Part shown: one piece after another, positions 4,237 to 63,465 of the stretch
How positions within the stretch are numbered: the first letter of the stretch is position 1
Layout: every line of letters starts with the position of its first letter
NCBI GenBank assembly: GCA_001774685.1
Contig: MFAS01000001.1
Location: forward strand, 287,557 to 351,556
Source: Candidatus Collierbacteria bacterium RIFOXYD2_FULL_45_13
GTDB taxonomy: Bacteria > Patescibacteriota > Microgenomatia > UBA1400 > MFAQ01
DNA length: 64,000 nt
Reading direction: 5' to 3'
The notes under the pieces: model-generated
Databases searched by the model: none
Seen by the model: only the letters and a program-made list of their open reading frames with translations
What the model was told of the DNA's origin: nothing
Position numbers and translations under genes: made by a program

Positions 4237-4989
4237 ATGTTGTACAGCTATCGCAAGGCCACCCCGGATAATCCACATCCGGGCAGGCGCATACCTCGCT
4301 ATTTAAAAACCATTCCTACCTTGGTGTCTGCCTTGGGACTAGGGATACTCGCTGGCGTTGCCTATCCGGTCGTCAGTTATCAGTTCAAAGACATCAAACT
4401 TTTTAGCTCTTCTGATTCCGGCTTACTCTCCCCCGTTTATTATCAATCAAAGGCAGAAGACAACTCCTCTCCTGTTATCGTCAATGGTTTGGATTACACC
4501 AAAGCCAGTAGTTGGTTCCCGGGTAGTATTCAAAACGAATTTTTTTCTGCTCAAACGCCCGCCACAGACAACTCTCCGGATTCATATACTCTTTCTATTC
4601 CCTCACTCGGAATTATCAATGCACAAGTCGCCATTCGGGACGAAGATCTGACCAAACATTTAGTGCAGTACCCTCAGACAGCTCTTCCCGGTCAAATTGG
4701 CTCTCCGGTGATCTTTGGTCACTCTACACTGCCTCAGTTCTTTGATCCCCAAAAATACACCACGATCTTTTCAACGTTACCAAAAGTCAAAGTCGGCTCC
4801 GATGTTTTTATTACCTACGACGGTATCGAGTATACCTATCGTATTACCAAGACCTTTGAGGTCAAGCCCAATGAGTTGTGGGTTCTCCGACAGGACTACT
4901 CGGATAAAACCCTCAAGGTCATTACTTGTGTACCACCCGGCACCACCCTCCGGCGCCTGATTGTCGAAGGCACCCTCATCAACAACTAG
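4237..4989 (+). CDS. sortase family transpeptidase
   Basis: N-terminal TM anchor. Catalytic triad context: GHS..(His), LKVITCVPPGT (TLxTC Cys motif), RRL (Arg). Start abuts the previous stop. Confidence 0.75.
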   Translation: MLYSYRKATPDNPHPGRRIPRYLKTIPTLVSALGLGILAGVAYPVVSYQFKDIKLFSSSDSGLLSPVYYQSKAEDNSSPVIVNGLDYTKASSWFPGSIQNEFFSAQTPATDNSPDSYTLSIPSLGIINAQVAIRDEDLTKHLVQYPQTALPGQIGSPVIFGHSTLPQFFDPQKYTTIFSTLPKVKVGSDVFITYDGIEYTYRITKTFEVKPNELWVLRQDYSDKTLKVITCVPPGTTLRRLIVEGTLINN

Positions 4990-52101: not shown

Positions 52102-53250
52102 ATGAAATATTTCAACCGGCTATCAGCCATTCTCCTTTCTGCTTTGTTATTTTCTTTCACCCTCATCTTTCCGGCGCACGCCGTCTACCTGAACTCCGGC
52201 AATCAGCTGGATCTTCCTAAAGATAAAAAAATAAACGAAACCGCCATCATCGCCGCCGGTACTTTAAACATAGACACCGAAATCAACGGTGACCTCTTCT
52301 GTGCAGGCAGAGATATTGTCGTCAATGGAGATATCAAAGGCGATGTGCTTTGTGCAGGGCAGTCCGTCAAAATAAATGGACGAGTCGATGGCAATGTTCG
52401 TATTGCAGCTCAGTTTATCGAGATAAATGGTCAGGTCGGCCGGAATATCACTACTGCCTCTCAAGGCTTGATAGTTTCTAAGTTTGCTTCAATTAAAGGC
52501 GATATTTTCTTTGGGGTCCAAAGTGCTGACCTCAGAGGTACCTTGGGTCGAGACCTGCTCGGTGCCGCCGACCAGCTGACTATTTCCGGGACCCTTATCA
52601 GAAATGCCAAGGTGGCAGCCAGCAAGATATCTTTGGTCGATCCTGCCAAAATTGGCGGGGACTTCGAGTATTACATGGAAAATATTGGAACAGCCTCGGT
52701 CAATCAGCAAAATGTCAAAGGAAGTATCTTAAAACACGAAATTGTCAGAAAGGAAGTCTCCCAAAAAGAAGTAAAGGGTGTCACTATTGCTGCCAAGCTG
52801 ATGGCCCGGCTATTCTGGCTTGTTTCAACTCTATTGTTGGGCTTTACCCTAATCTATTTTCTCAGATCGAGGGTCACTCAGCGCAGTCAGCTAATCACCC
52901 GGAAGCCATTCATCACCGGCTTCGTTGGTTTAGCTGTCCTTATTCTTTCCCCAATCGTCGCGATTCTTCTTTTAATCAGCGTAATTGGAGCCCCCTTGGC
53001 TATCGTCGTTATTCTCGAATACATGTTGTCGCTCATTCTGGCCTCTATTTATCCCACGATTCTCCTCGGTGAATGGGTTATTAAACTGCTTACCAAAAAG
53101 AAGTCTGGCGGTCTGGGCTGGTCGTTATTCGCCGGAGCAGTCACCGTAGGGCTCCTGTTCTTTGTTCCCCTCATCGGCTCCATCGTGGCCTTCATTTTAC
53201 TGTGTTCAGGTTTAGGGTCTATCTTTCTTTCTTACCTTCCAGAGAAATAA
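52102..53250 (+). CDS. membrane protein with signal peptide, bactofilin-like beta-helical repeat region (DUF583-like) and C-terminal multi-TM segment
   Basis: Repeats of INGDL/VNGDIKGDV/INGRVDGNV type (GD-x-x-G/N periodicity). N-terminal signal, 3-4 C-terminal TM helices. Confidence 0.4.
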   Translation: MKYFNRLSAILLSALLFSFTLIFPAHAVYLNSGNQLDLPKDKKINETAIIAAGTLNIDTEINGDLFCAGRDIVVNGDIKGDVLCAGQSVKINGRVDGNVRIAAQFIEINGQVGRNITTASQGLIVSKFASIKGDIFFGVQSADLRGTLGRDLLGAADQLTISGTLIRNAKVAASKISLVDPAKIGGDFEYYMENIGTASVNQQNVKGSILKHEIVRKEVSQKEVKGVTIAAKLMARLFWLVSTLLLGFTLIYFLRSRVTQRSQLITRKPFITGFVGLAVLILSPIVAILLLISVIGAPLAIVVILEYMLSLILASIYPTILLGEWVIKLLTKKKSGGLGWSLFAGAVTVGLLFFVPLIGSIVAFILLCSGLGSIFLSYLPEK

Positions 53251-53794: not shown

Positions 53795-54910
53795 ATGAAA
53801 AAACAAAAGACAATTGTTTCGGCTTTTCTCCTACTAATTGGTTTGATCATCGTCTTCGGCGTCGCCCTCCTTCTCCAAAAAGGTAATTTCAACGACCAAA
53901 GCCGAGCTTCCACCGGTACCGTAATGCTCGGTAAGCTCATCACTGTCACCGATCGTTCTTGTACCAAATGTGTCGAGCAGTGTCCCGGTGCAGACAATGT
54001 CCTCCGCAACTGTCACCCCATGGAGTCGGACGGTACTTCTATGGAAAGCACCTGCAATGTTGCCGGCCGTATCGAATTCTGTGGTACCAAGTCATTCTGT
54101 TGTCCCAGCCCGGGTGGCAAGTGGACCACCGATCTCACCAAGTGTCCCGGTGGCGCACCCAAAGTCATGACCCCTGTTTCTTACCGACTTCTTAAAGATG
54201 GTGGCGTATGTACTTCCATCATTGTTTCCAAGACATTAGCCGATCCACTGGTTGGCAAAAAAGTCATTGCTACAGGGTCTCTTGAAGAACCATATTTCTA
54301 TGCTACCGAGCTTGTTCAGAACACCTGTGTTCAGCAATGCCCCGGTAAAGACAACGTTCTTCGTAACTGTACTCCTCCGGAAGCCGACGGTACTTCAGAA
54401 GATAGCACTTGCAACGTCGCTGGCCGTTCAGCCTCCTGTGGCGGTACTCAGTTCTGTTGCCCCAAGCCAGGTGCCAAGTGGACCAAGGATATGGCACAGT
54501 GTCCCACCACATCTACTACCCCCACCAAGACACCCACTCCTACACCGACCAAGACTCCTACACCCACAACCACTGCAACCCCGACACCGACAACTACCAC
54601 CAACACTCCTCCTACCGTATCCACAGCTTCACTTCCCACGGGTAACGTGGGGAGGACTTATTCCGCAGCTGTGACAGCGAATGATCCAAATAAAACAGAT
54701 AGGTTAAATATTACTTTTTTCGGATTACCCGCCGGTTTAGTTCCCGGACCTTGTGGTGGAGCCGTAAACAGTGGTCAAATAACTTGCTATATTTCCGGCA
54801 CGCCAACTACTGCCGGGTACTATAAGGTAGGTATTACTGCTACCGATGATCACGGAGGAGCCACTAGCACGTCACTTCCTTTGTCCATTGTTAGTGTAGT
54901 CAGGCAGTAA
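53795..54910 (+). CDS. secreted protein: signal peptide, two tandem 8-Cys modules, Thr/Pro-rich linker, C-terminal putative Ig-like (He_PIG-like) domain
   Basis: Repeated CxxQCPGxDNVLRNCxPxExDGTSxxSTCNVAGRxxxCGxxxFCCPxPGxKWTxDxxxCP module twice. TPTPTKTPTPT linker. LPTGNVGRTYSAAVTANDP...LPAGL...GTPTTAGYY..TATDDHG resembles a putative-Ig domain. Confidence 0.55.
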   Translation: MKKQKTIVSAFLLLIGLIIVFGVALLLQKGNFNDQSRASTGTVMLGKLITVTDRSCTKCVEQCPGADNVLRNCHPMESDGTSMESTCNVAGRIEFCGTKSFCCPSPGGKWTTDLTKCPGGAPKVMTPVSYRLLKDGGVCTSIIVSKTLADPLVGKKVIATGSLEEPYFYATELVQNTCVQQCPGKDNVLRNCTPPEADGTSEDSTCNVAGRSASCGGTQFCCPKPGAKWTKDMAQCPTTSTTPTKTPTPTPTKTPTPTTTATPTPTTTTNTPPTVSTASLPTGNVGRTYSAAVTANDPNKTDRLNITFFGLPAGLVPGPCGGAVNSGQITCYISGTPTTAGYYKVGITATDDHGGATSTSLPLSIVSVVRQ

Positions 54911-54935
54911 AAAGACTGATATCTCCTGTATTTTG

Positions 54936-54995
54936 TCGGGGTACTCAGAATTGAACTGAGATCGCGCGCACCCCATGCGCGCATACTGCCGTTAT
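54936..54995 (-). other. duplicated 3' fragment (60 nt, positions about 12-73) of tRNA-Pro; identical to the intact copy 190 bp away
   Basis: Exact 60/60 match to 55126-55185 including anticodon arm, T-arm and 3' acceptor strand. Lacks the 5' acceptor/D-stem. Confidence 0.55.
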
Positions 54996-55026
54996 TTCCT
55001 AGCATCATAACGAAGTTATGAGCGGA

Positions 55027-55097
55027 AATAAGAGGAAGCGCAGGAAGTACTTTTCAATAACTAAGTTATTGAAAGGATGACGAGCAAGCTCTTATAC
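55027..55097 (+). repeat. structured repeat element B copy 1 (closing stem ATAAGAG/CTCTTAT, inner hairpin caataac-taa-gttattg)
   Basis: Shares ATAAGAGGAAGCRCAGG...GACGAGCAAGCTCTTATAC with copy 2. The inner hairpin differs in sequence but keeps its pairing. Confidence 0.5.
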
Positions 55098-55125
55098 TAA
55101 AACCGAGAGTCTTTCGACCATTTAG

Positions 55126-55196
55126 TCGGGGTACTCAGAATTGAACTGAGATCGCGCGCACCCCATGCGCGCATACTGCCGTTATACTATACCCCG
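55126..55196 (-). tRNA. tRNA-Pro (anticodon GGG), 71 nt, no encoded CCA
   Basis: Minus-strand fold: acceptor CGGGGTA/TACCCCG (7/7 WC), D-arm GTAT/GTAT (2 WC + 2 GU) with GG in the loop, anticodon stem CGCGC/GCGCG with loop AUGGGGU (U33, GGG, G37), variable CGAT, T-arm CTCAG-TTCAATT-CTGAG, discriminator A. Confidence 0.6.
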
Positions 55197-55259
55197 AAAT
55201 GTACTCATTCGGGGTAGAGTTACTATATCCAGCCGATAATATAGTTATCGGCGCCAGAT

Positions 55260-55329
55260 ATAAGAGGAAGCACAGGCTGCCATTTCGATAATGACTATTA
55301 TCGAAAGAAAGACGAGCAAGCTCTTATAC
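55260..55329 (+). repeat. structured repeat element B copy 2 (same closing stem; inner hairpin tttcgataat-gac-attatcgaaa)
   Basis: Conserved flanks as in copy 1. A 10-bp perfect inner stem replaces the 7-bp stem of copy 1 (compensatory change). Confidence 0.5.
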
Positions 55330-55424
55330 CCCGAATCGAACCCGTTCATTTTACCACGCTTCCTCCCTTGCGAAAATAACCCAAATATATATAATGACCT
55401 TAGTTACCAAAATACCCGAAGAAA

Positions 55425-56486
55425 ATGCCAAAGAAAGCCAAGAAAACTAAAGAAGAAAAGTCAGTAGCCAAGCCCGCAGACAACACCGCTCGTCTTACCG
55501 CCGTCAAAATTGCCATGCAGCAAATCACCAAACAGTTTGGTGAAGGGGCGATTATGCATATGGGTTCCGACCGTGTCGATGAAAAGATACCCGTAATCTC
55601 CACCGGTTCGATTAGTTTGGATTTAGCTTTGGGTGTGGGTGGTTTCCCCAAAGGCAGAATTATTGAGATTTATGGTCCGGAAGCCTCAGGTAAGACCACT
55701 TTGGCTCTCCATGTCATTTCAGAAGCCCAAAAAACCGGCGGTATAGCCGCCTTTATCGATGCCGAGCATGCTGTGGACCCCAGCCGTGCGAAATCTATCG
55801 GAGTCGATCTGGATAGTCTTCTTTTATCTCAGCCGGACAACGGTGAGCAAGCTCTGGAGATCGCCGAGACTCTTATCCGTTCCGGCGGTGTGGATGTCGT
55901 AGTCATTGATTCTGTCGCCGCCCTGGTTCCCAAGTCAGAGATCGAGGGCGAAATGGGTGACTCTTCTATGGGGCTTCAGGCGAGACTCATGAGTCAAGCT
56001 TTGCGCAAGATTACCGGTGCTATTTCCAAGAGCAAGTGTATCGTTATCTTTACCAATCAGCTCCGCGAGAAAATTGGTGTGATGTTTGGGAATCCCGAAG
56101 TCACTACTGGTGGTAAAGCTCTCAAGTTCTATGCTTCCATTCGTATCGACATGCGCAAAATTGGGAATATCCAGGAGGGCGATGAAATCATCGGTTCCCG
56201 TCACCGTGCCAAAGTGGTGAAGAACAAAGTTGCTTCACCTTTTAGGACTGCTGAGTTCGATGTTCTCAATGTCGGAGGTATTAGTAAACTAGGCGACCTC
56301 ATCGATACCGCCATCGCCTATAACGTCCTGGAGAAAGCCGGCTCATTTATCAAATATGAAGGGGAGACTCTGGCCCAAGGGCGTGAATCGGCCAAAGCCG
56401 CTTTAGCCGAGCGTCCTCAAGTCATCGAAAAGATTAAGCAGCAAGTCATGGAAAAGGTCAATGCCGGAATCCAGCCGGAAAAGTGA
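55425..56486 (+). CDS. recA: recombinase RecA
   Basis: [12 protein letters not shown] (Walker A), L1/L2 loop context. 353 aa. Confidence 0.95.
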
Positions 56487-62857: not shown

Positions 62858-63169
62858 ATGATATATTCATATATTATGGAACAGCAAGAAAAAACTTACG
62901 CTGAGCGGATTACTGCAATTTACGAAAAAGTTAAAAACAGCCTCGGTGAAGAAAGGGCTAAATTATTTAATGAAGTAGTTAGAGGTGCCAGCTTATTAGA
63001 TGAAGATAAGAACTTATTAACCCAAATAGATAGTTTAGACATGGGTGGATTAGATATTGAGGTAAGCAAGCTTGAAGAAATTGTGGAAGGCATGAAAAGG
63101 CAGTATGAAGCTAGTAGTATTTACGAAGCCTTTGCGCCGCGAGCCCTTGCGGGCTCCCTAGTACAATAA
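62858..63169 (+). CDS. hypothetical protein (about 100 aa) in an AT-rich segment
   Basis: Charged helical composition. Start uncertain (alternative ATG at 62876). Weak. Confidence 0.35.
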   Translation: MIYSYIMEQQEKTYAERITAIYEKVKNSLGEERAKLFNEVVRGASLLDEDKNLLTQIDSLDMGGLDIEVSKLEEIVEGMKRQYEASSIYEAFAPRALAGSLVQ

Positions 63170-63184
63170 GCCGGATTCTGTCGT

Positions 63185-63455
63185 GGAGGAATATCTATCT
63201 ATGCTCGAGACTTTAGGGATAGAAAAGGCACCTTAGTCCCAATTCGTCGATTGCAGCGGGGCGGGTTACCACCCCTATACCGTTACCGGTACAGGGTCTC
63301 CACCTAACGGTGGAACGTTTCACCTTTGATCGTCTCTGTGGCCCTATCGCGCCTCCCGAGTCACCTCGGGAAGGACTGGGTTTCCCCAGCCACCCTTCCT
63401 TTTAGCTGTCCGGACTTTCCTCCCCACCTTGCGGCGGGGCATTCCTCTCGTACTA
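63185..63455 (-). ncRNA. rnpB: RNase P RNA, compact bacterial type
   Basis: Minus strand contains GGAAAGTCCGGAC (P4 5' strand), CCCCGCC-GCAA-GGTGGGG (P3 with GNRA loop), GGGGAAACCCAG, ACAGAGA, GGTGAAAC, GGGACTAAGG (P4 3' strand). P1 GAGGAAT/ATTCCTC defines the ends. GC-rich with no ORF. Confidence 0.75.
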
Positions 63456-63465
63456 GGGATAGCCA

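Follow-up and report, generated by a model that had tools for sequence, protein, structure and literature searches.

Two copies, B1 and B2, of a previously undescribed hairpin-forming mobile element of about 100 bases that is common in Collierbacteria lie upstream of recA in the 64,000-nucleotide stretch of Candidatus Collierbacteria bacterium RIFOXYD2_FULL_45_13 analyzed here ("the window"), and both are very probably mobile-element insertions. This reading is carried by family membership, a common structure, precise ends, presence and absence between genomes, and a preference for tRNA genes. Literature searches on Collierbacteria repeats, on miniature inverted-repeat elements of the candidate phyla radiation (CPR) and on tRNA-duplicating elements turned up no description of the family. 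The locus reads as three tandem tRNA-Pro copies, i.e., copy C interrupted by B1, an intact copy B, and copy A interrupted by B2, arranged as follows:

54930–54994, minus strand: copy C, the 3′ part of tRNA-Pro(GGG), recognized as a 66-nt direct repeat and ending in GCCGTTA at the start of B1.
54995–55094, plus strand: B1, a complete element copy of subfamily 1 (covariance model match 54993–55094, 109.9 bits, E 1.6e-21), with helices P-a (54995–54999 with 55024–55028) and P1 (55029–55034 with 55089–55094) and hairpins hp1 (55005–55021) and hp2 (about 55050–55076).
55095–55125, minus strand: spacer, read from the sequence as TACTAAAACCGAG, unrelated filler and then the ATTTAG trailer of the intact gene.
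55126–55196, minus strand: copy B, the intact tRNA-Pro(GGG) gene (ARAGORN; Rfam 51.6 bits).
55188–55216, no strand: hairpin TACCCCGAA / TTCGGGGTA, an inverted repeat (DNA fold −11.2 kcal/mol, z-score −5.8).
55208–55225, minus strand: copy A of tRNA-Pro, 3′ part, internally deleted, from comparison with the intact gene and L176.
55226–55326, plus strand: B2, the second complete element copy, of subfamily 2 (covariance model match 55222–55326, 86 bits, E 2.4e-16), with hairpins hp1 (55232–55252) and hp2 (arms 55283–55292 and 55297–55306).
55327–55360, minus strand: ancestral tRNA-Pro 5′ end (TACCCCGA on the plus strand) plus the original upstream flank, from colinearity.
55368–55395, plus strand: recA promoter-like site TTGCGA-16-TATAAT (promoter scan, 10/12 matches; sigma70-like).

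The intact gene was accepted by ARAGORN (55125–55196, minus strand) and by the Rfam tRNA model (55126–55196, 51.6 bits, E 5e-10), and its sequence is identical in the element-free relative L222. The partial copy (54930–54995; tRNA positions ~12–76 plus 6 nt of 3′ trailer) forms with 55120–55185 a 66-nt direct repeat with one mismatch (65/66 identical), slightly longer than the 60 nt given in an earlier note on this DNA, all of whose listed features are present. These include the extra copies of the tRNA 5′ and 3′ ends, which a repeat search placed at 55208–55216 and 55327–55336, and two palindromes: the one at 55232–55252 is hp1 of B2 (its B1 equivalent being 55005–55021), and the one reported at 55190–55216 spans 55188–55216, where the intact tRNA's 5′ end pairs with the 3′ acceptor strand that remains of copy A. 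The B elements are equally real, although the ~70 nt ascribed to them falls short of the element proper (54995–55094 and 55226–55326).

Relatives without the element carry a single tRNA-Pro and no fragments, and therefore we read the window as a B1-broken copy, an intact gene and a B2-broken copy; the 60–66-nt 3′ tRNA fragment, the short end copies and the 55188–55216 hairpin are leftovers of the broken copies. Specifically, B1 sits in the D-loop of tRNA-Pro(GGG) and B2 after acceptor position 7–8. What is left of copy A is TCGGGGTA, its 3′ acceptor strand, and GAGTTACTA, a D-arm remnant ending in YTA at the start of B2, while the sequence at 55327–55360, which probably includes the tRNA-Pro −10 box (TAAAAT on the minus strand), is colinear with that directly after the intact tRNA in L015 and L220. 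To the right of B1, TACTAAAACCGAG appears by its letters to be a decayed remnant of the copy C 5′ end (intact version TACTATACCCCGA); 5 nt of continuing tRNA sequence followed by divergence are also seen in L032, L015, L003, and L030, and a copy C-type fragment also abuts the element in L015 and L032. Gene conversion with the live gene probably keeps the long fragment identical. The 55188–55216 hairpin is missing from the element-free L221–L223, and its counterpart in L176 follows that genome's own acceptor stem sequence, CGGGGTG.

Since tRNA pieces and B alternate and the tRNA-Pro sequence is present three times, the locus could also be taken for an immobile tRNA-plus-B unit that was merely duplicated in tandem on the spot—a simple recent event of this kind was the case that the earlier note held against itself. 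The family data refute it, and we give it practically no credence. Only 80 of 109 aligned positions agree between B1 and B2, as against the near identity of the tRNA repeat, and the two belong to different subfamilies; each is closer to copies at other sites in other genomes, B1 to the L031 copy (91%), which lies inside tRNA-Pro(CGG), and B2 to the L030a copy (80%). The spacings differ as well (190 nt vs. 232 nt), and the two types are found separately in relatives: the region upstream of recA holds only a B1-type copy in L015 and L032, only a B2-type copy in L176, a B2 cut to 14 nt in L220 (the closest relative), and no element in L221–L223.

The family extends well beyond this locus and is widespread in Candidatus Collierbacteria, which belong to the Microgenomates within the CPR. 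A covariance-model search for B, as the earlier note had proposed, was run and, together with pattern scans, gave a total of 128 distinct copies from genomes and metagenomes of Candidatus Collierbacteria, with the covariation supported. An exact-core scan of genome contigs returned about 30 true copies, all in Collierbacteria-type genomes, a metagenome scan added 94 copies, and covariance model R1 gave 37 and 111 matches; a scan of viral contigs for the element gave 0 matches. The element is about 100–113 nt long, has no coding capacity, and is built of two stem-loop domains. In domain 1, helix P-a surrounds hairpin hp1; in domain 2, helix P1 (TAAGAG/CTCTTA) surrounds the invariant unpaired GAAGCRCAGG and GACGAGCAAGC plus hairpin hp2; and both hairpins are topped by a near-invariant ATAA(Y)...(R)TTAT. 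We rejected the idea that the conserved stretches are coding, as copies do not keep the ATG and differ in hairpin loop length by numbers that are not multiples of three.

The ends are precise. The left end reads T(A/T)TYC... and the right end ...GCAAGCTCTTA, terminating in CTCTTA; the last 8 nt are invariant but for one position (C in 112 copies, G in 11), and left and right ends are not inverted copies of each other, i.e., there are no terminal inverted repeats. On the left, YTA flanks about 65–80% of copies (position −1 is Y in 80%, followed by TA), which makes for a short and weakly defined target, and on the right, position +1 is Y in 95%. A natural pair of empty and filled sites within one genome (L078 and L027) is colinear once the element is removed. 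That pair and the tRNA comparisons, likewise colinear after element removal, reveal no target duplication; a 2-nt TA duplication is possible at most sites, the T-loop target in L059 (GGTTCGA^TTCCC), which has no TA, being the sole site arguing against it. Most copies stand alone, each between unique flanks and without another copy close by. Head-to-tail tandem copies occur in L045, L215, and L133, and such arrays fit the element's own TTA terminus acting as target.

Four helices covary strongly across the family. In alignment A2, 89.5% of cells are paired, compared with 35–57% when partners are slid, and 17 pairs have changed on both sides, values reached in 0 of 500 shuffles; in the independent alignment A3 the figures are 90.8% against 37–49% in controls, with 398 double-change cells vs. 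110 in shuffles. P1 is among the covarying helices (variants TAACAG/CTGTTA and TAAAAG/CTTTTA), as are the lower pairs of hp1 and hp2, and both hairpins fold as single-stranded DNA (fold z-scores −3.9 for B1 and −5.6 for B2). Thus, the different yet perfectly paired internal hairpins first noticed in B1 and B2 are a covarying, selected structure, and one that belongs to the family as a whole. Copies at orthologous sites with compensatory changes (L069 with L109, and the window with L176) could alternatively mean selection by the host.

The same covariation, along with the invariant unpaired nucleotides and RNA fold z-scores of −3.1 to −5.2, would also be expected if B encoded a functional structured RNA, e.g., a small RNA, a cis-regulator, or the guide-RNA scaffold of an IS200/IS605 derivative with the right flank as guide. 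Gene-less IS200/IS605 derivatives have been reported often to encode omega RNAs (PMC10055086), which offers a precedent. A promoter scan places an outward promoter-like site at the right end of B1, and the divergence of the right flank after 4–22 nt (see below) would, on this account, stop a guide from targeting the intact tRNA. We nonetheless regard a functional RNA as improbable. Counts of G-U vs. A-C cells were 29 vs. 17 and 90 vs. 63, with one peripheral pair giving most of the excess, so that neither strand has a clear G-U bias; DNA folding is equally good for both strands, and both orientations occur relative to neighboring genes, neither consistently. Across the whole window, Rfam at gathering thresholds found only tRNA and RNase P, and between 54700 and 55600, with E relaxed to 10, only tRNA and chance-level matches, i.e., the element matches no known family. 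No TnpB-like gene was matched by tblastn with an ISDra2 TnpB query in 0.89 Mb of element-bearing DNA, which is a weak negative. Likenesses by eye to hammerhead, twister, and signal-recognition-particle RNA had no Rfam support, and a reverse-strand role as a promoter or 5′ leader module was ruled out because both orientations are found beside gene starts.

The recA neighborhood weakens the regulatory variant further. The recA promoter-like site is conserved in L015, L220, L221, and L176 and lies downstream of B2, B2 is almost wholly deleted in the closest relative, and other relatives have recA without any element. A role for B1 and B2 as recA regulators is therefore not supported, the elements being upstream of the recA transcription unit, and neither is the proposal of a small-RNA or regulatory locus in front of recA. 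As they lie outside that unit, the elements carry little weight for recA biology.

The family data do show that the element preferentially enters tRNA genes. Thirty-six of the 128 copies have a tRNA within 300 nt, and at least 24, across 12 tRNA species, interrupt tRNA-derived sequence and abut its fragment; in every one of these at least 24 cases an intact copy of the same tRNA stands alongside. Entry points comprise the D-loop, anticodon loop, variable region, and T-loop, in either orientation, and the right-flank tRNA piece continues for 4–22 nt before it diverges. Two further ways of linking B to tRNAs were considered and rejected. The element does not behave as a tRNA intron or as the joint of a split tRNA, given that it occurs in either orientation relative to the tRNA and that the short exon-like piece is decayed; and reverse-transcriptase template switching onto tRNAs would sit poorly with a Pro fragment that reads through position 37 and with two sense-orientation cases.

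An intact tRNA, a short insert, and a repeat of the tRNA 3′ part that reaches 6 nt past the 3′ end make up the classical attL/attR geometry, and the earlier note had accordingly considered a decayed integrative element or excision scar at tRNA-Pro; the partial tRNA would be attR and B what remains of attP arms. This explanation is close to refuted, and we consider it highly improbable. About 70% of the 128 copies (about 90 sites) are unrelated to any tRNA and lack flank repeats, whereas those in tRNAs break 12 species at D, anticodon, variable, and T positions in both orientations. In the window, only about 130 nt separate the repeats, and these are a copy of a dispersed repeat; no integrase lies nearby, and viral contigs gave no matches. 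Moreover, the tRNA carries on for 4–22 nt in the right flank, which makes the element an insertion within a gene copy, not a crossover boundary. What stands of the proposal is mobile DNA at a tRNA; its att footprint gives way to an independent ~100-nt element with precise ends and no integrase.

A different recombination-based account treats B as a folded recombination site like integron attC, or as another substrate of a tyrosine or serine recombinase, with small circles of B plus a neighboring segment excising, by recombination between copies, and re-inserting to yield tandem arrays and tRNA "cassettes" bordered by a B copy on either side. Domain 2 resembles the architecture of attC sites, its closing helix and unpaired bases being conserved and its top variable. 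Two copies in the same orientation do flank an intact tRNA, both in the window (B1...tRNA...B2) and in L030, tandem unit arrays exist in L015 and L045, and the covariation has no G-U bias. Yet copies have no recurrent integrase or recombinase gene in their neighborhood, and most of them stand alone between unique flanks; the ends are unlike the GTTRRRY core of attC sites, and L031 has the tRNA duplication with a single element copy. We judge this account improbable, to the same degree as a functional RNA.

We favor instead the explanation that B1 and B2 are two independent insertions of a non-autonomous mobile DNA, one that may move as folded single-stranded DNA and may be mobilized in trans by a hairpin-recognizing HUH/Y1 (IS200/IS605-type) transposase, thus working like a palindrome-associated transposable element. 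The IS200/IS605-type mechanism specifically is put forward tentatively; insertion and mechanism taken together, the explanation as a whole is reasonably probable. IS200-type Y1 transposases (Pfam Y1_Tnp, E 1e-26 to 1e-30) are encoded in these genomes 0.2–1 kb from element copies, and three types of Y1_Tnp element were found in the 0.89 Mb searched, where no autonomous element had ends matching B. GC-rich hairpins (GGAAACCCCG...CGGGGAGGA) mark the ends of the resident Y1-transposase elements and bear no resemblance to B, and alignments of B to resident IS200-like ends gave no higher scores than shuffled controls did; as these ends differ from B, we infer both the mobilizing enzyme and the origin of the duplications. 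No transposase recurs beside copies, all-against-all clustering of neighboring ORFs having given only syntenic orthologues, and no transposase turned up in the 64-kb window either.

Palindrome-associated transposable elements, i.e., IS200/IS605 derivatives without genes that the Y1 HUH transposase TnpA moves in trans, are likewise non-coding and present in several copies per genome, have mutually similar hairpins near both ends, lack terminal inverted repeats, and insert 3′ of a short conserved motif. They do so without target duplication, and none is seen for B at the sites compared; IS200-type TnpA genes are present in B-bearing genomes. However, the ends of B match no TnpA-bearing element found, its target motif is only about 3 nt (YTA), and it has two closing helices more, both covarying, as well as long unpaired stretches that are invariant. 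We know of no described counterpart of those stretches, or of helices P-a and P1, in IS608-type ends, nor, to our knowledge, has a strong tRNA preference with accompanying gene duplication been described for palindrome-associated transposable elements.

Other short repeats share less with B. REP and REPIN sequences with their RAYT (TnpA-REP) are also short, structured, intergenic, multi-copy palindromic sequences, often in mosaics with other repeats; they are probably moved in trans by a Y1 transposase, as B may be. A REP measures 20–40 nt and carries a GTAG or CGTC tag, and a REPIN is an inverted doublet; B, instead, has a constant ~100-nt unit in which two different domains follow each other in direct order, with no flanking RAYT gene arrangement seen. 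RUP of pneumococcus (107 nt) and the Correia elements of Neisseria resemble B in their size near 100 nt, TA-containing intergenic sites, and possible outward promoters. Elements of this type have clear terminal inverted repeats, TA target duplication, and DDE transposases. B differs from TA-duplicating miniature inverted-repeat elements (IS630/mariner-type) in lacking terminal inverted repeats and in having, at L059, a target without TA. With integrative elements at tRNA genes B shares the intact tRNA beside a direct repeat of its own 3′ portion, but B is only about 100 nt long, has no integrase, lies mostly away from tRNAs, and breaks them at varied positions, and the repeat in the window is what remains of a broken gene copy, not the product of a crossover.

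Single-strand "peel and paste" transposition alone does not predict the tRNA duplications. The spare intact tRNA might come from insertion coupled to local duplication or template-switch repair; alternatively, a small circle of element plus tRNA piece might integrate by homologous recombination. A bolder version, which we think rather unlikely, would make B a tRNA-seeking element whose every insertion is mechanistically coupled to a local duplication that regenerates the intact target (by template switching, fold-back repair, or tiny-circle integration). If true, essential single-copy genes in ~1-Mb genomes would become colonizable through a safe-landing strategy unlike that of integrase att-site regeneration or of self-splicing introns.

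The mobile DNA of candidate-phyla-radiation bacteria, whose genomes are tiny and tightly packed, is little known. The family provides a defined, easily modeled element with no fewer than 128 distinct copies and a marker of recent genome change in Collierbacteria, and it accounts for tRNA pseudo-fragments, which would be mistaken for island scars by annotation pipelines and att-site finders. Its constant pairing with an intact tRNA, across 12 species, bears on how a transposon enters essential, mostly single-copy genes without killing its host; were insertion and duplication coupled, this would amount to a new way of duplicating tRNA genes. Within the window, the covariance model and pattern scans find these two family copies only, both on the plus strand, and the B flank motifs have no further occurrence in the 64 kb (chance expectation 0.02–0.15 matches). 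The cumulative GC skew is negative across the whole window.

The study region (54911-55424) lies between a 371-aa open reading frame (53795-54910, plus strand; no Pfam match) and recA (55425-56486), downstream of which are recX and the RNase Y gene; the window's RecA is 84-94% identical to proteins labelled Candidatus Collierbacteria. ARAGORN and Rfam agree on a single tRNA-Pro(GGG) on the minus strand (55125/6-55196), as the earlier note had read it, and the copied tRNA 3' end described there is present as a direct repeat of 66 nt with a single mismatch (54930-54995 = 55120-55185), which covers six bases of trailer and the tRNA itself from position ~12 to its 3' end. The reported palindromes and short copies of the tRNA ends are likewise all present, and the flank motifs of the two B elements occur only at their two reported places in 64 kb (chance expectation, 0.02-0.15 matches). 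A sigma70-like recA promoter (55368-55395) lies downstream of this tRNA and element array and is kept in relatives with and without elements; the elements thus fall outside the recA leader, and the suggestion of a small-RNA or regulatory locus for recA was not upheld. Elsewhere in the window, a bactofilin-domain protein is encoded at 52102-53250, upstream of the 371-aa frame, and a bacterial class A RNase P RNA (63151-63459, minus strand; 129.9 bits) is the only Rfam gathering-level match; the tRNA-Pro is the sole tRNA gene according to ARAGORN.

The B elements belong to a dispersed family. When 185,579 species genomes were scanned for the two conserved unpaired stretches of the element (GAAGCNCAGG and GACGAGCAAGC, separated by 20-50 nt), ~30 true relatives were recovered, exclusive to Collierbacteria-type genomes, together with chance matches in GC-rich genomes. 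A single genome often had several of the true relatives, and they frequently lay at the ends of contigs. Conserved sequence in the relatives extends further left, so that the unit, from T(A/T)TYC to GCAAGCTCTTA, measures 100-113 nt rather than the ~70 nt initially proposed, with the following boundaries:

54995-55094: B1 unit, with the domain 1 hairpin (hp1) at 55005-55021
55226-55326: B2 unit, in which hp1 is the previously noted palindrome at 55232-55252

Metagenomes yielded 94 further copies and the viral contigs scanned yielded none. The covariance-model search that had been called for, with a model built from 32 copies, gave scores of 109.9 bits for B1 and 86 bits for B2, with no other match in the window, and recovered 37 and 111 matches in the fetched loci; when copies are told apart by sequence and flanks together, the total is 128. 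No Rfam family matches the element and a literature search found no published description of the family. The copies make up a new mobile-element family, small and structured, in a lineage that has received little study.

Several element-bearing MAGs are deposited under other names, as Spirochaetia (L003, L024, L032, L051, L064, L108, L109) or Pseudomonadales (L010, L017, L031, L036, L037, L045, L047, L059, L061, L097, L222); L019 and L096 also carry the element, and labels in the whole set are Spirochaetia, Pseudomonadales, Rikenellaceae or Oligoflexia. In L032 (labelled Spirochaetia) and L222 (labelled Pseudomonadales), the recA-recX-rny locus is of Collierbacteria type and RecA is 84-89% identical to that of the window. 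These non-Collierbacteria labels look wrong.

Each element contains four helices: helix P-a and hairpin hp1 in domain 1, and helix P1 and hairpin hp2 in domain 2. P-a varies (e.g., TATTC/GAATA, TTTCC/GGAAA, TAATC/GATTA, TATCA/TGATA), P1 is TAAGAG/CTCTTA with variants TAACAG/CTGTTA and TAAAAG/CTTTTA, and both hairpins combine a near-invariant top, ATAA(Y)...(R)TTAT, with variable lower pairs; the unpaired stretches of domain 2 are invariant. The earlier view that the covarying hairpins reflect a selected structure is borne out: in the 32-sequence alignment 89.5% of cells are paired, versus 35-57% with slid partners, and 17 pairs have changes on both sides, values that 0 of 500 shuffles reach. 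An independent metagenome set, whose alignment was fitted to the covariance model and is somewhat biased toward structure, gave 90.8% paired cells versus 37-49%, and 398 double-change cells versus 110 in shuffles. G-U cells exceed A-C cells only slightly (29 vs 17 and 90 vs 63), mostly at one peripheral pair, neither strand folds better than the other as single-stranded DNA, and copies occur in both orientations relative to adjacent genes. Together with the covarying pairs, these properties lead us to infer that what is selected is Watson-Crick hairpins in the DNA, not an RNA made from one strand.

Comparison of flanks and termini across copies shows sharply defined ends. A pyrimidine stands immediately before the element in 80% of copies, followed by TA; the last eight element bases are invariant but for one position (C in 112 copies, G in 11); and the first right-flank base is a pyrimidine in 95%. 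The Collierbacteria genome LCJG01 holds one repeated segment twice, empty in locus L078 (...AACTTA/TTTTCGGG...) and filled in locus L027 (...AACCTA-element-TTTTCGGG...), and the two are colinear after removing the element. A second dispersed repeat module with GC-rich palindromes, GAGGTnTTATAACGAAATTC...TTTTCGGGAC...GGCTCACCGCCCTGCCTGCCGGCAGGCAGG, is present in two copies in one Collierbacteria genome, of which one has the element and one lacks it (L078 ~4619-4783, L027 ~4330-4575); these genomes appear to carry mosaics of several repeat types. Upstream of recA, the window and related loci from other genomes carry:

Window: B1 and B2
L015 and L032: a B1-type insertion alone
L176: a B2-type insertion alone
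L220 (closest relative, RecA 91%), 1228-1262: the last 14 nt of B2 (CGAGCAAGCTCTTA) joined to a hairpin remnant
L221, L222 and L223: a single intact tRNA-Pro, with no element, tRNA fragments or hairpin

Since B2 is cut down to 14 nt in L220, the element can decay and the host does not need it there. B1 has 91% identity with a copy in the tRNA-Pro(CGG) of another genome, compared with at most 85% for the same-site copies of L032 and L015, and it shares 80 of 109 aligned positions with B2; B1 and B2 are therefore independent insertions, and local duplication as their source was rejected. An HNH_repeat-domain gene lies between tRNA-Pro(GGG) and recA in two relatives (L221 690-1454, L223 498-1394), so the elements are not the only source of variation in this intergenic stretch.

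The element has a repeatable and unusual link with tRNA gene duplication. A tRNA gene lies no more than 300 nt away from 36 of the 128 copies, and at least 24 copies directly adjoin a fragment of the neighbouring tRNA, with an intact copy of the same tRNA 10-45 nt off. Twelve species are hit (Pro-GGG, Pro-CGG, Arg-CCT, Arg-TCT, Arg-CCG, Thr-TGT, Thr-GGT, His-GTG, Val-CAC, Ala-GGC, Tyr-GTA, Ile-GAT), at the D-loop, anticodon loop, variable region or T-loop and in either orientation. Usually a long, almost perfect tRNA fragment stands on the element's left, while on its right the tRNA continues for 4-22 nt only, followed by unrelated filler and the intact gene. Read in tRNA orientation, from right to left, the window has this arrangement:

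55360-55327, minus: presumed promoter region of the ancestral tRNA gene, then its 5' acceptor strand
55326-55226: B2, second part in tRNA orientation
55225-55208, minus: stump of the B2-broken tRNA copy (D-arm remnant and 3' acceptor strand)
Between stump and intact tRNA-Pro: twelve bases of filler
55196-55126, minus: intact tRNA-Pro
55125-55095, minus: trailer of the intact gene, filler and decayed 5' end of a third tRNA copy
55094-54995: B1, inside the third tRNA copy
54994-54930, minus: 3' 60 nt of the third tRNA copy and trailer

In the hairpin at 55188-55216, the 5' acceptor strand of the live gene pairs with the 3' acceptor strand left over from the copy that B2 broke, and the equivalent hairpin in L176 matches that genome's own, different acceptor sequence. 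Of the earlier interpretation, mobile DNA at a tRNA gene stands and an integrase scar does not.

Element-free relatives have one tRNA-Pro and zero fragments, which ties the duplication to insertion, either mechanically or via selection. The spare tRNA could come from selection of rare duplications already present, or from a small circle (element plus tRNA piece) integrating by homologous recombination. Template switching or fold-back repair during insertion is a further option, suggested by inverted copies of the right flank immediately left of the element (window B2, L176, L096/L097, L149). In L031 an entire ~87-nt tRNA unit with short flanks is tandemly duplicated, with the element in one copy; at non-tRNA insertions no flank duplication was seen except in L045 (237-nt unit). 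Gene conversion by the live copy would account for the long fragment staying identical as the short one decays. A minority reading, in which the element specifies a guide-type RNA, would have right-flank divergence stop self-targeting of the live tRNA, but no TnpB was found in the 0.89 Mb of element-bearing DNA searched, nor any RNA-type signal.

Single-strand transposition of the IS200/IS605 type (IS608, ISDra2) involves neither terminal inverted repeats nor target duplication, inserts 3' of a short motif, and uses two alike near-end hairpins with structure-level covariation lacking G-U bias. The element lacks terminal inverted repeats and has similar near-end hairpins that covary in structure without G-U bias; it appears to insert 3' of a short motif and without target duplication, although a 2-nt TA duplication may have occurred at most sites. 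We propose that it may move like a gene-less IS200/IS605 derivative. Searching 0.89 Mb of element-bearing DNA by tblastn with IS200 and IS608 TnpA identified five Y1 transposase genes of three types, each 0.2-1 kb from an element copy and confirmed as Y1_Tnp by Pfam (E 1e-26 to 1e-30). The IS200-like genes are:

L078 4791-5222, minus
L210 603-1022, plus
L218 1335-1766, minus
L131 and L132

These resident IS200-like Y1-transposase elements have GC-rich end hairpins (GGAAACCCCG...CGGGGAGGA) that are unrelated to the ends of B. No Y1 transposase gene was found in the window, nor any transposase recurring beside element copies. Gene-less IS200/IS605 derivatives are the palindrome-associated transposable elements (PMC10055086). 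One of their defining features is ends that match a resident autonomous element; those of B, however, match none found in the 0.89 Mb searched, and membership is therefore not established.

Head-to-tail copies occur in L045, L215 and L133, which fits the element's own TTA end acting as a target. At 3385-4004 of L045, a terminator and a diverged element are duplicated in perfect tandem over 237 nt (215 nt identical), with an extra element at the end of the second duplicate. Four copies of the element lie within 900 nt there. At 55069-55098 (plus strand), the hp2 3' arm and the right junction of B1 make up an outward sigma70-like site, TTGAAA-18-TATACT; the TTGAAA is kept in most copies, and the element may create putative read-out promoters.
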